A stretch of 64,000 bases of DNA from a bacterium HR37. Lineage in GTDB: Bacteria; Desulfobacterota_D; UBA1144; Nemesobacterales; CSP1-2. Of this stretch, positions 19,160-61,721 are shown piece after piece. Within the stretch, counting starts at the first letter, position 1, and each line of letters begins with the position of its first letter. Position numbers and translations under genes: made by a program. The DNA lies in NCBI GenBank assembly GCA_002898375.1, contig BEIN01000014.1, positions 6,712 to 70,711 on the forward strand, read 5' to 3'. Under the pieces are notes generated by a model that did not search any database, was not told the origin of the DNA, and saw nothing but the letters and a program-made list of their open reading frames with translations.

Positions 19160-19528
19160 TTATCTATTAAGATTTAGGATCAGTTCAACCTCCCCTACAG
19201 TCATTCCAAGTTTATCTGCTATCTCCTGGGCATTTAACCCTTCTTCGGAGAGTAAGATAACCTCTTTTCTTCTATCTATTTCCTTTTTTAAACTGGATGT
19301 TACGGATTCAGCTTGATTTATTAACTCCCTTAATACCTCTATTTTCTCGTTTGCTGAGTCTTCCAGAGTCTTTAGGGTCTTAACCTTGTCCTCTATCTTT
19401 TTAAATATTATGTCCGCAATTTCTTTAACCTCTAATAGTTCGGTCTCAAGCAGTTTAATATCATCACTCCTTATGCCTTCTTTTGTTTCTTTTTCTTTGT
19501 TTCTCTTTATAAAGATCTTCTTTGACAT
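19160..19528 (-). CDS. coiled-coil protein with C-terminal HTH (sigma70 region-4-like), putative regulator
   Basis: 122 aa; Lys/Glu-rich helix then LSEEGLNAQEIADKLGMTVGEVELILNL; no family recognised. Confidence 0.3.
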   Translation of the reverse strand: MSKKIFIKRNKEKETKEGIRSDDIKLLETELLEVKEIADIIFKKIEDKVKTLKTLEDSANEKIEVLRELINQAESVTSSLKKEIDRRKEVILLSEEGLNAQEIADKLGMTVGEVELILNLNR

Positions 19529-19789: not shown

Positions 19790-21097
19790 ATGCCTGTTAA
19801 TCCCTTTAACTTAATAGGGAAAACATTAGAAGGGCAGCTGGTTAAATTTGCCAGACCAGGTGAGGGTTTTCTAACCCATTATCTGGGAAAAAATGTAAAT
19901 CCAGCGGGAAATAATTTCCCTATGGTTCTAAGTCTGATACTGGGTTCAGAGGATGGCACTTTACCTTTTAAACCTCACTCCAGTGCAGTTGAGAGTGGGA
20001 ATTTGCTTTATGGTATAGAACCTCTATCTGATAGTGATACTGAACCAGGTAATGCAGACCTAAAGGTTGTTAGTGATAAAAACCTATATGATATGGTCGG
20101 TATTATTCTGGCAGTGGTAAAAGATTTGGCTAATTTAATACCGGAGTTTATTTCCGGGAAAGCAGAGAACGGGATTGGTCGGAGTACTGTTCTTAATGCA
20201 TCCTTCTCTAATTCTAAACCTGGTACTCAGGATTCTTTCTACAACCAATTGTATCTGCGTGATTCGGGATACGTGGCTTTTTTAGTAGATGGTAGATCCG
20301 GTGGTACACCAACTGCGGAAGAAAGCAGGGGAGGTGGATACGGTTTTTCTGCATATAAGGATGATTTGCTTCAAAGGATATCGAAAAAGGGTTTTTTCAA
20401 AACCGATCCTATCAGTTTTAATGAGAATCCAGATGATTTTAAAAGCTCCTTTTCTGTTACTGAAAGTGGAGAGGATGTTAAAAACAGAGTGTTTTCTGAG
20501 CCTCTATTAAGGGAGGTTAAGCACCCAGACGTTACCAAGGAAGATAGTTCAAAGCCCGGGCTGGATTACTTAAGAAATGAGCCTGTAGATAGGTTAACTT
20601 CTTTAGATTTTTCAGTTTCTAAGCTGACTTCTTCTGATAATGGTAAACAGGAACCCCTTTTACCCAGTGGGTTACACCATTTCTACTCTGGTTCAAATGG
20701 TAAGGTTGATCTTGGTGATGTTAAAAATTTCTTTTCCGTTGCTAAGAGCGGAAAGGAGTTTATTGTAACCCTCGAGCCCGAGGGGCTTGGAAAGCTAAAT
20801 ATACAACTCAGCATGGATCAAGGTTTTATAAATATAAAGATAAATGTATCAAACGGTGTTGTAAAAGCTTTCATTGAGAACAATATCCACAGCATGGTTG
20901 ATTTGCTTCTTAACGATGGAATAAACATCGGAGGTCTCTCAATTAATATTGGGAACGGTAAAAGGAACTGGGATGAGGGTTATGAGTATAGGGCTTTTAG
21001 AGGGAATATAACCATTCCCGGTGTGGAAAGAGTATATGCATCAGGGACCCAGGGTTTTTATCGTGGTTCCAGTGGGCTTGTAAGTATCTTTGTTTAA
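19790..21097 (+). CDS. fliK: flagellar hook-length control protein
   Basis: 435 aa; C-terminal Flg_hook/T3S4 domain LEPEGLGKLNIQLSMDQGFINIKINVSNGVVKAFIENN; upstream of flgD-flgE. Confidence 0.7.
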   Translation: MPVNPFNLIGKTLEGQLVKFARPGEGFLTHYLGKNVNPAGNNFPMVLSLILGSEDGTLPFKPHSSAVESGNLLYGIEPLSDSDTEPGNADLKVVSDKNLYDMVGIILAVVKDLANLIPEFISGKAENGIGRSTVLNASFSNSKPGTQDSFYNQLYLRDSGYVAFLVDGRSGGTPTAEESRGGGYGFSAYKDDLLQRISKKGFFKTDPISFNENPDDFKSSFSVTESGEDVKNRVFSEPLLREVKHPDVTKEDSSKPGLDYLRNEPVDRLTSLDFSVSKLTSSDNGKQEPLLPSGLHHFYSGSNGKVDLGDVKNFFSVAKSGKEFIVTLEPEGLGKLNIQLSMDQGFINIKINVSNGVVKAFIENNIHSMVDLLLNDGINIGGLSINIGNGKRNWDEGYEYRAFRGNITIPGVERVYASGTQGFYRGSSGLVSIFV

Positions 21098-23159: not shown

Positions 23160-23186
23160 TAAAGTTTTTCTTTTAAGTTCCGATAA
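23160..23186 (+). promoter_or_regulatory. sigma28 promoter TAAAGTTT-N11-TCCGATAA
   Basis: Near-perfect FliA consensus read directly, ~50 nt upstream of the 23234 ORF heading the REC/HD-GYP/motAB gene string. Confidence 0.6.
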
Positions 23187-29536: not shown

Positions 29537-31030
29537 TTATCGGCCAAGTAACGCTAGAACCTGCTGGGGAACGGTATTGGCTTGGGCTAGAACCGATATT
29601 CCAGCCTGCTGCATGATCAGTCCCTTTGTAAGGTTTGCTGTTTCCTGTGCAAAATCGGCGTCCACTATCCTTGAACGGGCAGCCGTTATGTTCTCACGAA
29701 TGTTATCGAGGTTTCTTACAACGGATTCAAACCTGTTCTGTTTCGCTCCCAGTATGGATCTCTGACTGTTTATAGAATCCATTGCACTCTTAAAAACAAG
29801 CATGGCAAGATTGGCTGATGCTGCAGTGGTTACCGTTTGTGCATTCACTGTGGAATCAGAAAGTGTTGCAGTTGCACTCTTTACCCCAGTTATGGAGAAA
29901 CCGGTTGTATCAGCATCAAATGAGACGGTTGTATCACCAAGTGAATCGTTAAGAACAATGGCTCCGTTTGCACCTGCATCAACCGATGTTGTTCCTGCGC
30001 TAAAGAAGTTTGTAATGTCGGAGTCAACGGAATCGTTTGCTGTAACGGTTATGGCAGCTCCGGTCCTGTTAATAAGAACGATGGCCGAGTCATCGCTGGT
30101 GCCATCGCCATTTAGGTCATCTACCCTGACCGCGGTAACGCCGTGCTGGGCGGTTTTGGCATTTATAGCGTTGACAAGATTATTGGCCAAATCCCCAAGC
30201 GTGGCTCCTGCTGCTGCTGCATCTATTGAAATTCCGTTTATTACAAGAGCTCCTGCAGCTATATCGGCTGCGGATGCAGCAGAGGGGTCAAAGGAGACAC
30301 CAACCAGGCCGTTTCCGTAGCCAAATGCTGTAACACCTGTGCTACTGGTATAGGAATTTATGGTGTTAATCTTTTCTGAGGAAAGTGTGTTTGCGGCAAA
30401 TTGGCTTCCCAGGCTAACCCCTTCTAGGGTTGGGGTGGCAGAGGATGCGTTTGCATACGCTCTTGCTATTCTGGTGGCAAGGTCAGAATTGCTCAGGTTG
30501 TTTATGGTTGCATAGTTTGTAGCTATACCTAACGTGGCTGGAGAAACGTTGGAGATGGAGATATTTATGGTTTCATTTACCTCTAACCCGACCTGTATAT
30601 CTGCACTAAAGCCTCCTGCAAGAAGTTTCTCACCGTTAAATCTGGTCTGGTTAACGATTCTGCTTAGTTCATCTATAAGCTGAGAAACTTCTTGATTAAG
30701 AGAGTTCCTGTCCTGAGTTGTGTTATAGCTTGCCGCCTGTTCTGCCAATTCGTACATTCTCTGCAGGTTGTTTACCATCTCATCCATTGCCCCTTCTGCT
30801 GTTTGCAGTATAGATATACCATCGTTGGCGTTTCTTATCGCAACTGTAAGACCCCTTATTTGAGTTGTCATTCTGGTAGATATGGCAAGTCCAGCTGCGT
30901 CATCTTTAGCTGAGTTGATCCTTAACCCGGAAGAGAGCCTCTGCATGGCAGTTTGTATAATTGGCTCTGTTTTGCTAAGGTTTCTCTGTGCATTGACAGA
31001 GAGTAAGTTTGTGTTAATTACCAGTGGCAT
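29537..31030 (-). CDS. fliC: flagellin
   Basis: 497 aa; conserved D0/D1 N-terminus MPLVINTNLLSVNAQRNL...RINSAKDDAAGLAI and C-terminus QQAGISVLAQANTVPQQVLALLGR. The central ~300 aa is an Ala/Thr/Ser/Gly/Asn-rich variable domain. Confidence 0.9.
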   Translation of the reverse strand: MPLVINTNLLSVNAQRNLSKTEPIIQTAMQRLSSGLRINSAKDDAAGLAISTRMTTQIRGLTVAIRNANDGISILQTAEGAMDEMVNNLQRMYELAEQAASYNTTQDRNSLNQEVSQLIDELSRIVNQTRFNGEKLLAGGFSADIQVGLEVNETINISISNVSPATLGIATNYATINNLSNSDLATRIARAYANASSATPTLEGVSLGSQFAANTLSSEKINTINSYTSSTGVTAFGYGNGLVGVSFDPSAASAADIAAGALVINGISIDAAAAGATLGDLANNLVNAINAKTAQHGVTAVRVDDLNGDGTSDDSAIVLINRTGAAITVTANDSVDSDITNFFSAGTTSVDAGANGAIVLNDSLGDTTVSFDADTTGFSITGVKSATATLSDSTVNAQTVTTAASANLAMLVFKSAMDSINSQRSILGAKQNRFESVVRNLDNIRENITAARSRIVDADFAQETANLTKGLIMQQAGISVLAQANTVPQQVLALLGR

Positions 31031-31129
31031 TTGCTTTTACCTCCTTTTAATTTTGGTTTTTGCTCTCTTTAAAGAATTCCTTTAAAACTCTTTATCACCT
31101 CCCTTAGAGTTTTTTTGTTTCTAATTCTC

Positions 31130-31156
31130 TTATCGGTTTTTTTTTGATAAACTTTA
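31130..31156 (-). promoter_or_regulatory. sigma28 promoter TAAAGTTT-N11-ACCGATAA for fliC, with ~100-nt leader
   Basis: Read from the reverse complement. The leader carries AAGGGAGG and the SD AAGGAGG. Confidence 0.7.
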
Positions 31157-31163
31157 ATTACGA

Positions 31164-32417
31164 ATGGTAGATTTTAAGGCTACGGGTTTAAATACCAGCT
31201 TCCTCATAATAAAGAGTGCTTCTAAGAGGGGATTGGTTTTAAAACCGGGGGAGATTGTAAAAGGAAAAATTGTAGAGGTATCACCTCTGGGTGATGTGTT
31301 GTTAAAGATAAAGGGAACCCTTGTTAAAGCCAAAGCGAAGCTAAATTTAGAAAAGGGGTTAGAGGGTCTTTTTAAGGTTTTAGATACTGGGGTGGATAAC
31401 ACCACCCTAAAGCTTCAGTTTGTTGAGTATTCTGGGAAAAAGATATATCCGGATTACAGTAGTGAACTCAGAGGTGATCTGGAGAAGTTAGTTAAAAGCC
31501 TGGGTGTGGTTATTAAGAAAGAAGGGATCAGTGCTACAGAGGTAAGAGGAATCTATTTTGATTTATTAAAAGCCCTACATTCTAATGCTGATACCCTATC
31601 GGACCCACTCCGTTTTGATCTGATACATCTTCTCCGGAGTTTTTTGAAATCTGATGGGCAAGGTGTAAGTGAAAGGCTTGGGATTTTTAAAGACCGAATT
31701 CCGGCTCCTTTAAAAGAGTTTATCCCTTATGGAATCTTTATTGATGAGGTAATGGAGGGAGAAAGGGAAGAAGTTTTGGGACTAAGAAAGGCTCTGCAGA
31801 ATAGTGGTGTTGCTCTTGAAGCTAAGTTAAGGCTTTTCCTTAAGCAAATTGAGAAGAAAGAAAAACAGGATATCAGGGAACTGGAAAGTTCCCTTTTAAA
31901 GGAAGATATGAAACTTAGTCTGCTCAAGATAAAAGAGCTTTTGGAAGAGGGGGCGGGTGCAAGAGAAGGGATTAGAGATAAAGGGATTCTGGAGCAGGCT
32001 AATACCCTTCTTAAGGATATAGAGACCTATCAGATACTCTCAAAGGTTACAGATTCACTTTATACGTTCTTGCCTCTAACCTGGAGGGGATTTAAGGACG
32101 TCGATATAATGCTAAAAAAAACTGGGATTGGCTGTAAAGACCAGCTTTATGTCTGCAGAATCCAATTCGATACTGAGAGGTTGGGAAATCTAACAGCTAC
32201 GGTTCTTATGTATAGAGATGGTTTCTTTGTGGTGTTTAAAACAAAAAGCCCTTTATTCTTGAAGTTGCTGAATCTTTATGTAAATGAGTTGGAGGAAGCG
32301 TTTAGAAGTAAAGGGCTTAGCTTAAAAGTGGTAAGGATCTTGGATGCTGATGAAAGCAGCTCTGATGAGCTGGATTATTCCCTATCTTTTAGGAATATGG
32401 TGGATATCAAGGTATGA
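31164..32417 (+). CDS. FliK-like protein (C-terminal Flg_hook/T3S4-like domain), paralog of the hook-length control protein
   Basis: 417 aa; C-terminal [53 protein letters not shown] follows the FliK C-terminal domain pattern; translationally coupled to the downstream FlhB-C-like gene. Confidence 0.45.
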
Positions 32418-32683
32418 GCGGTAAGATAAAGAAGGCTGTAGCGTTAAGATATGACAAGGAGGCTGACTCTGCACCCAGGGTGGTGGCAAAGGGAAGGGGA
32501 AATGTTGCTGAAAAGATTTTACAGATTGCAAGGGAGTATAATATACCATTGAAAGAGGATCCAATTCTGGTAGATGCCCTCTCAACCCTTGATCTCTACC
32601 AGGAAATTCCTCCAGAGCTCTACAAGGCTGTTGCAGAGGTTCTTGCTTTTGTATACAGGCTAACCCAAAGGGAACTTAAATAG
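32414..32683 (+). CDS. FlhB C-terminal-domain-like protein (YlqH/EscU-YscU family stand-alone domain)
   Basis: 89 aa; [39 protein letters not shown]...[15 protein letters not shown] matches the FlhB cytoplasmic C-terminal domain. Confidence 0.7.
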
Positions 32684-32691
32684 GATTTTAA

Positions 32692-33231
32692 CTATGGGGT
32701 TGTCTCCTTTGCTTCTTTCGCATTTAGTATCCTTTTTGTTATAGTTGCAGCCTTCTGAGACTCTATAAGGGCAAGTATTGATCCTGCTTTTTTGCTTTTC
32801 ATATTTAGTATGATGGTTACTGCTGTTTCTTCATCCAGGGCTGATAGCTTAATGGCTGCTTCTTCTGGAGGCATGGATTCGTAGAGTTTTACCACATGAT
32901 TTAGCCTTTCTTCTTTAATTTTATCTAGTTCCTTTAGGGCTTTCTCAATCTGGGTTAGAATTTCTGTATATTTTTGAATCTTTTCTTCAAGATCTTTTCT
33001 TAAGATTTCAAGCCTCTCTTCTTCTTTTTTTAAAAGGGCTTCTTTGTTTTCAAGCTCTTTTTGTTTCTTCTCTATAGCCTGTATTATGTCGTTTTCAGGA
33101 TAAGCGGGAGTAAGGGATATGGATGCAAAAAAACAGGTCATTGCTATTACCTGAATTGCTAGTAACCCTTTTGTTAATCTCCTTAGCGCTATCTGTTTAC
33201 CTTCTTTAAAAGGGAAATAAAATCTATCCAT
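32692..33231 (-). CDS. flagellar MgtE-N-like domain protein (B. subtilis YlxF/FlbB-like)
   Basis: 179 aa; N-terminal TM, coiled coil, C-terminal MPPEEAAIKLSALDEETAVTIILNMKSKKAGSILALI; placed after fliJ as in the B. subtilis fla/che operon. Confidence 0.5.
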   Translation of the reverse strand: MDRFYFPFKEGKQIALRRLTKGLLAIQVIAMTCFFASISLTPAYPENDIIQAIEKKQKELENKEALLKKEEERLEILRKDLEEKIQKYTEILTQIEKALKELDKIKEERLNHVVKLYESMPPEEAAIKLSALDEETAVTIILNMKSKKAGSILALIESQKAATITKRILNAKEAKETTP

Positions 33232-48873: not shown

Positions 48874-49908
48874 ATGCCAGATTTTGAAGAAAGGACAGAA
48901 CAACCAACTCCTAGACGGCGTGAGAAGGCAAAGGAGAAGGGCTCGGTACCAAGGAGTAGGGAGCTTATATCCATGTTTGGTACTGCCGGGATATTTCTTT
49001 TTCTGTATCTTGCGGGAGACCATTCTATTGAAAACATCTTCTACCTGATTAAGTACGTTTTGGGCTCATTACACGAAAAGGACTTAATCTTTGTTGCCAA
49101 TTTTGCATTTCCCAAAATGGTATCTGTATTGATACCGTTTTTGATAATCCCATTTGTATTTGCAGTCTTTACCGGTGTGCTTCAGGGAGGTTTTGTGCTA
49201 AAACCTCTGGGGTTTGAAATTGAACGCTTAAACCCTTTAAACGGTTTAAACAGGATCTTTTCTCTGTCTGGCTTTTTTGAGCTTTTAAAGAGTGTATTTA
49301 AATTTGCAGTTGGTGGGGTTTTATTTTTCTACATAGTAAAAAAATCGCTTCATCTACTGCCTTCTGTACCTGTTATGAGTTTGCCAGAGATAGTGGCGTT
49401 TTCTCTAAAGTTTATAGCCAGGATGGTTCTAGTAGTCTTTATAGTGTTTCTTGCTCTTGCTTTAATCGATTATCTAATTGAAAGATGGCGTTTTGAACGT
49501 TCAATTAAGATGACAAGATACGAGCTCAAGGAGGAAATGAAAGAGCATGAAGGGGATCCACTGATTAAGTCAAGAATAAAAAGCATACAGAGAGAGTTGG
49601 CCAGAAAACGGATGATGCAGGAGGTTCCAAAGGCAACTGTTGTAATAACAAATCCAGCCCACCTGGCTGTTGCCTTAATGTATAGAAAAAATGAGACTCC
49701 AGCTCCCAAGGTTATTGCAAAGGGGGCTGGGTTGATAGCGGATAAGATTAAAGAGATTGCAAGGAAACACAGCATTCCCATTATCGAAGATAAACCACTT
49801 GCCCAGGCTCTATATAAGCTTGAAATCGGTTCAACTATTCCAGAGGAATTGTACAGGGCTGTAGCAAGGATACTTGCATATCTGTACAGGATTGGAAGGA
49901 TTGTATGA
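48874..49908 (+). CDS. flhB: flagellar export apparatus switch protein
   Basis: 344 aa; MPDFEERTEQPTPRRREKAKEKG N-terminus, 4 TM, autocleavage-site variant NPAHLAVAL. Confidence 0.9.
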   Translation: MPDFEERTEQPTPRRREKAKEKGSVPRSRELISMFGTAGIFLFLYLAGDHSIENIFYLIKYVLGSLHEKDLIFVANFAFPKMVSVLIPFLIIPFVFAVFTGVLQGGFVLKPLGFEIERLNPLNGLNRIFSLSGFFELLKSVFKFAVGGVLFFYIVKKSLHLLPSVPVMSLPEIVAFSLKFIARMVLVVFIVFLALALIDYLIERWRFERSIKMTRYELKEEMKEHEGDPLIKSRIKSIQRELARKRMMQEVPKATVVITNPAHLAVALMYRKNETPAPKVIAKGAGLIADKIKEIARKHSIPIIEDKPLAQALYKLEIGSTIPEELYRAVARILAYLYRIGRIV

Positions 49909-61694: not shown

Positions 61695-61721
61695 TAAAGT
61701 TTCCCGTTATAAAACCGATAA
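61695..61721 (+). promoter_or_regulatory. sigma28 promoter TAAAGTTT-N11-ACCGATAA downstream of cheB
   Basis: Read directly: CCTAAAGTTTCCCGTTATAAAACCGATAAT. Confidence 0.5.

Follow-up and report, generated by a model that had tools for sequence, protein, structure and literature searches.

The window, a stretch of 64,000 nucleotides from the genome of bacterium HR37, carries a further case of fliK2–flhX, a widespread flagellar module that is built of both parts of the export specificity switch. The upstream gene (31164–32417, plus strand) encodes a 417-aa FliK-like protein, here called FliK2, which is recognized by its open reading frame, a Flg_hook match, a family profile and an AlphaFold model. 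The downstream gene (32414–32683, plus strand) encodes an 89-aa FlhX-like protein, which is recognized by its matches to Bac_export_2, to TIGR00789 and to chain B of structures in the PDB. The association of the two genes is already known and named, and the pair in the window is an additional example of it, not a discovery. The best explanation of the conserved operon, to which a probability of about 50% is given, is that FliK2 would engage FlhX as a soluble, pre-cleaved FlhB-CCD and would control its docking on the export gate.

Sequence features of FlhX and FliK2

The match of the small protein to the Bac_export_2 profile is limited to the final 74 profile positions (262–335 of 335, 82.6 bits), which bears out the sequence-only reading that it represents the C-terminal domain of FlhB and nothing else. 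It also aligns end-to-end with TIGR00789, 'FlhB-like' (profile positions 1–81 of 84, E = 5.6e-34), with a score of 116.2 bits that is 1.15 bits short of the curated cut-off of 117.35 bits. For close homologues NCBI uses the name 'FlhB-like flagellar biosynthesis protein', and a protein record of 'bacterium HR37' is 100% identical. The best PDB matches are 3b1s_B, which we take to be Aquifex FlhB-C, and 3b0z_B from Salmonella. Both are post-autocleavage chain-B fragments of FlhB-C crystal structures, and both matches start at residue 5 of the post-cleavage chain.

FlhX co-occurs in the window with a full-length flhB (48874–49908, plus strand), as the sequence-only reading had noted. This resident FlhB has 344 residues, matches Bac_export_2 completely (positions 1–335, 390.6 bits) and contains an NPAH autocleavage site, the surroundings of which read VVITNPAHLAVALMY. 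The C-terminus of the resident protein is 46% identical to FlhX, which starts two residues ahead of the equivalent of the cleavage site and has G-K-I-K aligned with N-P-A-H, so that the autocleavage context is missing from the small protein, as had been claimed. FlhX has neither an NPxH autocleavage site nor a transmembrane domain and, to judge from its sequence, amounts to an FlhB-CC that is already cleaved at the genetic level. The pocket for early substrates in Salmonella FlhB is formed by A286, P287, A341 and L344 (PMC9307174). The corresponding residues of FlhX are A20, P21, A74 and L77, which are conserved in 75, 81, 80 and 81 of 81 FlhX proteins, respectively.

The C-terminus of the large protein had been read as FliK-type, and this assignment holds. 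The Pfam family Flg_hook (PF02120) matches residues 329–397 with 30.8 bits (E = 2.6e-7), which is borderline against the gathering cut-off of 29.8 bits. The assignment is accepted because Flg_hook is matched by 66 of 71 FliK2 family members (best E = 7e-14), because the family profile matches Salmonella FliK-C (PDB 2rrl, E = 3.4e-5), and because hhalign finds similarity between the 417-aa protein and the resident FliK (E = 5.4e-5), confined to about 82 residues of the T3S4 core. The best structural match of the AlphaFold model is the switch domain of PscP. The T3S4/Flg_hook substrate-switch domain comprises residues ~310–394 (32091–32345, plus strand) and the protein ends with the pentapeptide V-D-I-K-V (32400–32414, plus strand). 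The tails of 74 ORFs upstream of flhX follow the pattern [VLI][DSN][IVL][KR][AIV]-COOH, and the tail of the resident FliK, V-S-I-F-V, is similar.

Over the N-terminal part, no Pfam or NCBIfam model matched the 417-aa protein and no Pfam model matched the family. AlphaFold strands and the family profile delimit a predicted β-barrel domain at residues ~13–89 (31200–31430, plus strand), with strands at residues 13–16, 31–39, 44–49, 52–58, 67–75 and 82–89 and pLDDT values mostly between 62 and 82. The profile positions of this region (~12–90) are matched in most homologues, and the predicted barrel, which is conserved throughout the FliK2 family, is absent from canonical FliK. The first 11 residues are predicted to be disordered, and the middle of the protein, which carries an invariant SG-x-x-LE-x-KL motif, is modelled as helical with low confidence. 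The mean pLDDT of the monomer is 61.9, which is moderate only. Among the most conserved elements of the family is a motif at residues 296–307 (32049–32084, plus strand) with the consensus xDxFYTFLPxxW, in which P304 is near-invariant. The segment is unstructured in the AlphaFold monomer, with pLDDT below 50 for residues 298–306, and since it is conserved yet predicted to be unstructured, it is a candidate partner-binding peptide. No FxxxΦ gate-recognition motif is evident by reading of the first ~25 residues, a stretch that is poorly conserved, and according to the predictions FliK2 lacks the kind of N-terminus that is characteristic of FliK, a ruler that is extended or disordered and bears an export signal.

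The family is variable at its N-terminal end. The β-barrel region appears twofold in some members (L038/L039, 2295–3998; L056, 2205–3998), and much longer members exist, such as P0246 with 1109 aa and P0185 with 812 aa. This suggests that the N-terminal part expands in a modular way with the T3S4 end kept fixed.

Gene layout and expression signals

The two genes share four nucleotides. The sequence at 32411–32417 is GGTATGA, in which the ATG of flhX occupies 32414–32416 and the TGA of fliK2 occupies 32415–32417, so that the ATGA stop/start overlap described in the sequence-only reading lies at 32414–32417 of the plus strand. The start codon of fliK2 at 31164 is backed by conservation of the N-terminus among homologues. 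The pair lies between a flagellin gene (29537–31030, minus strand), which is divergent from fliK2 and 133 bp upstream of it, and the end of the fliF–fliG–fliH–fliI–fliJ operon, the last gene of which (32692–33231, minus strand) is convergent with the pair. The product of this last gene, encoded after fliJ, is a 179-aa coiled-coil protein with a weakly MgtE_N- or FliG_M-like C-terminus. Its slot presumably corresponds to the position of ylxF in Bacillus, directly ahead of fliK. The fliF–fliJ operon of the window stops at this gene, and fliK is located elsewhere together with flgD and flgE.

The canonical fliK, which encodes the resident hook-length ruler (19790–21097, plus strand), was also found as had been claimed, with a Flg_hook score of 47.5 bits. 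It is followed by flgD and flgE, recognized by their FlgD and FlgE domains, and the synteny with these genes belongs to it and not to fliK2. Divergent from the canonical fliK is a gene (19160–19528, minus strand) for a 122-aa DUF6115/DUF2802 protein with a helix-turn-helix-like C-terminus, which may be a flagellar regulator.

Three near-consensus σ28 promoters of the form TAAAGTTT-N11-12-CCGATA are present in the window, at 31131–31156 (minus strand), 23160–23185 (plus strand) and 61695–61720 (plus strand). The first of these faces the flagellin gene, for which it implies a 5′ untranslated region of ~90 nt. The end of its −35 box lies 8 nt upstream of the start codon of fliK2, which is on the opposite strand, so that the flagellin promoter and the beginning of fliK2 interleave. 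A search of the plus strand upstream of 31164 for the σ28 motif TAAA-N14-17-CGATA gave no match, and a slightly stricter form of the motif was found upstream of fliK2 in none of 70 related loci. A σ70 scan for the pair yielded nothing exceeding the shuffled expectation, and neither a Shine-Dalgarno sequence nor a promoter for fliK2 is recognizable in the 133-bp intergenic region (31031–31163).

Distribution, conservation and origin of the pair

Scanning one genome per species with an alignment of FlhX yielded 80 loci. Most belong to Nitrospirota, Thermodesulfovibrionales, Dissulfurispiraceae and Desulfobacterales, and the remainder includes Persephonella, Spirochaetia and Hydrogenedentes. An upstream ORF is present in 78 of the 80, and in 75 of these 78 the same-strand ORF directly upstream of flhX matches the profile of the 417-aa family. 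Two of the three non-matching ORFs, ~390–400 aa in length, resemble divergent members and were both included in the alignment of the second profile. The phylogenetic distribution of the gene pair, which the sequence-only reading had put forward as a check, thus extends over several phyla, the linkage being found in Nitrospirota, Thermodesulfovibrionales, Desulfobacterales and Persephonella and in single loci labelled Spirochaetia and Hyphomicrobiales. The upstream ORFs end near the start of flhX and range from 66 to 625 aa, the shortest being truncated by contig ends, and the length of FliK2 across the family is about 340–625 aa. The 4-nt overlap recurs in 19 of 70 related pairs, and in ~50 of the 70 the two genes are no more than 4 nt apart. 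The intact pair lies outside the flagellar clusters in Persephonella, Thermodesulfovibrio and one more genome of the Nitrospirota, where it is found among housekeeping genes, beside def, smc or serS (L082, 4940–6267; L083, 4752–6267; L084, 4265–6273). Across phyla, the survey finds that fliK2 and flhX travel jointly, in a flagellar cluster or not. The upstream protein in Persephonella has no Pfam match on record, yet it is a member of the FliK2 family.

HMMER, run exhaustively against 1.84 billion cluster representatives, found 1575 that belong to the FliK2 family at E ≤ 1e-3. This search was taken as the measure of family size, since a word-indexed search returned only 5 homologues; an exact-sequence look-up of the 417-aa protein gave no match. 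FlhX homologues number more than 1700 matches. No natural fusion of FliK2 and FlhX was found among 244 family proteins. The public records on the FliK2 family bear the labels 'hypothetical' or 'FliK'. A large Desulfobacterales subgroup of ~390 aa (P0274–P0365) was reached only via the family profile; a precomputed Flg_hook match exists for 2 of its ~90 proteins, and some JGI records in it are mislabelled as 'UDP-N-acetylglucosamine transferase subunit ALG13'. By its sequence record, fliK2–flhX is a conserved module of long standing.

The sequence-only reading had described the two genes as a duplicated, minimalised pair, and this description is misleading. BLASTP detects no similarity between the 417-aa protein and the resident FliK, and FlhX, which is 46% identical to the resident FlhB, is nearer to stand-alone homologues from Nitrospirota, Aquificota and Desulfobacterota; its identity to the stand-alone homologues of other phyla is 57–74% in the 80 loci. 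A recent or local duplication of the resident fliK and flhB was considered and rejected on these sequence distances, that is, 46% identity for FlhB and, for FliK, a similarity that is null in BLASTP and visible only with profiles. The restriction of FliK similarity to the T3S4 core, the separate N-terminal barrel and middle region of FliK2, and the closer relation of FlhX to its stand-alone homologues mark fliK2–flhX as an ancient two-gene module that evolves separately and not a recent copy. FliK2 is a distinct and ancient paralogue of FliK. Both genes are under purifying selection, with dN/dS of 0.23 for FliK2 and 0.10 for FlhX in comparison with a 97%-identical relative. The 417-aa protein is 96% identical to a hypothetical protein from a hot-spring metagenome-assembled genome (KatS3mg078) labelled Deltaproteobacteria.

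Possible mechanisms and known systems

In Salmonella, cleaved FlhB-CCD holds the export gate in the early mode and bears a docking site for early substrates. At hook completion it is ejected by FliK, for which the folded T3S4 region and the last five residues of FliK are needed, and these last five residues have been proposed to engage FlhB-CCD (Chevance et al. 2026, PMC13344023). FlhX is not mentioned in this paper on the ejection model. In the best explanation of the pair, FlhX would be a soluble, genetically pre-cleaved FlhB-CC/CCD that keeps the pocket in which rod- and hook-type substrates dock, and FliK2 would keep both elements that FliK uses on FlhB-CCD, the T3S4 fold and the C-terminal pentapeptide, with a β-barrel and a helical middle in place of the FliK-type N-terminal region. 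Made together from overlapping genes, the two proteins would most likely form a complex in which the switch domain of FliK2 holds or releases FlhX. Released FlhX would then be able to dock at the gate on FlhB-CN, the resident full-length FlhB being the presumed partner, and to supply or replace the function of the CCD. We infer that FliK2 contacts FlhX, that FlhX docks on the gate, and in which direction switching is affected; with the pocket retained, the T3S4 fold and tail retained and the two proteins co-translated, the simplest reading is that the contact between FliK-C and FlhB-CCD is reproduced in trans.

Several points count against this explanation. None of the 244 family proteins is a fusion, the monomer model of FliK2 has a mean pLDDT of only 61.9, and FlhX is 1.15 bits short of the TIGR00789 cut-off. 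There is no σ28 motif for the pair in the window, as opposed to the FliA-dependent operon of Pseudomonas putida, and a CCD that is re-loaded once the switch has occurred should block late export. The proposal in the sequence-only reading of an extra or regulatory switching module, for example a decoy or a second checkpoint, is plausible and agrees with present knowledge about FliK-C and FlhB-C.

Of the alternatives, a cytoplasmic sink or decoy is possible but on balance unlikely. Away from the gate, the pocket of FlhX would capture subunits of the rod or hook type, or else the C-terminal end of the canonical FliK, so that the switch is tuned or delayed or early substrates left over after the switch are mopped up; FliK2 would be an antagonist of FlhX or a partner-switch, and FlhX would never dock on the gate. 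The near-invariance of the pocket residues in a protein without a membrane anchor would suit such a role, as would the late, FliA-dependent expression of the pair in P. putida. The influence of the T3S4 protein HpaC on substrate choice through HrcU-C (PMC3040844) points the same way. However, H. pylori FlhX supports export upon deletion of FlhB-CC, so far as this is conveyed by the title of the report and a later summary, which implies productive docking on the gate and not pure sequestration. In addition, a sink has no obvious need for stoichiometric coupling with FliK2.

It is decidedly unlikely, though worth stating, that fliK2–flhX serves to re-arm or buffer the specificity switch of the flagellum. 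FliK2 would then deliver FlhX to, or withhold it from, an export gate whose CCD is gone, and the gate would be returned to rod and hook export for repair or premature switching would be prevented. If this were true, a step that is held to be irreversible in Salmonella would become reversible or tunable.

A second secreted ruler is quite improbable. FliK2 would be a type III substrate that measures another structure, be it the rod or, under other conditions, the hook, with FlhX as its dedicated cytoplasmic partner for docking or as a chaperone. FliK2 does retain the T3S4 domain and terminal pentapeptide of a secreted ruler, its length varies as widely as ruler lengths do, and its first 11 residues are predicted to be disordered. 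Nevertheless, the conserved N-terminus is predicted to be a folded β-barrel that is not FliK-type, the poorly conserved first ~25 residues contain no evident FxxxΦ motif, and the role of ruler is already filled by the resident fliK with flgD and flgE. Finally, the view that the genes are non-functional remnants of duplicated fliK and flhB, to which the borderline Flg_hook score of the window protein and the public labels could be taken to point, is effectively refuted by the conservation data, since both ORFs are intact with the dN/dS values given above, FliK2 has more than 1500 cluster representatives and FlhX more than 1700 matches, adjacency is kept across phyla and neither gene is closely similar to its resident counterpart; decay of the pair was rejected on the same dN/dS and conservation.

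The proteins of the window can be compared with several known systems. The name FlhX goes back to Pallen et al. (2005), according to a P. putida preprint (Leal-Morales et al., bioRxiv 10.1101/2021.08.29.457346), which also summarizes H. pylori FlhX (HP1575) as partially substituting for FlhB function. The title of Wand et al. 2006 calls HP1575 a 'spare part' that permits flagellar export with the FlhB-CC domain deleted, and this is the only role given for H. pylori FlhX in these accounts. Flagellar gene surveys query FlhX routinely. The window protein resembles the members of TIGR00789 (HP1575, C. jejuni Cj0848c and P. putida PP_4329) in being small (80–93 aa) and cytoplasmic, in having homology only to the post-cleavage part of FlhB, in having no transmembrane region or NPxH, and in occurring alongside a full-length FlhB, although its score (116.2 against 117.35 bits) is below the family cut-off.

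PP_4328/PP_4329 of P. putida is described in the same preprint as an uncharacterised FliA-dependent fliK2–flhX operon. As far as the published description allows comparison, the gene order is the same, with flhX directly preceded by a like-oriented ORF for a FliK C-terminal domain. The P. putida operon differs in its dependence on FliA, whereas the sole intergenic σ28 motif of the window faces flagellin on the other strand. A study of Campylobacterota reports 'flhX-fliK' in Nitratiruptor. In B. subtilis, ylqG is described as poorly studied and ylqH is listed as a type III export gene. We assume that the ylqG–ylqH pair is possibly the same module.

HpaC–HrcU-C and YscP/PscP–YscU/PscU likewise pair a T3S4 protein with a C-terminal domain of the FlhB/YscU family; these proteins, however, act on a membrane-anchored partner, and a stand-alone U-C subunit is not known from either. 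HpaC acts intracellularly and is not known to be secreted. In Xanthomonas this protein, which has a T3S4 domain, governs the choice of substrates via HrcU-C (PMC3040844).

With Salmonella FliK and FlhB-C the pair shares the T3S4 domain and the conserved tail in FliK2, and the FlhB-CC fold with the A286/P287/A341/L344 pocket in FlhX. It differs from canonical FliK in that the similarity of FliK2 is undetectable beyond the T3S4 core and its N-terminal domain is predicted to be folded. It differs from FlhB-C in that FlhX has no tether to the gate and can do without autocleavage. Unlike FliK and FlhB, FliK2 and FlhX form one coupled unit that is often distant from other flagellar genes. The current view of FlhB-CCD in Salmonella is that of a lock which can be ejected, and a separately encoded CCD that comes with a T3S4 partner therefore offers a handle on the lock model in other bacteria.
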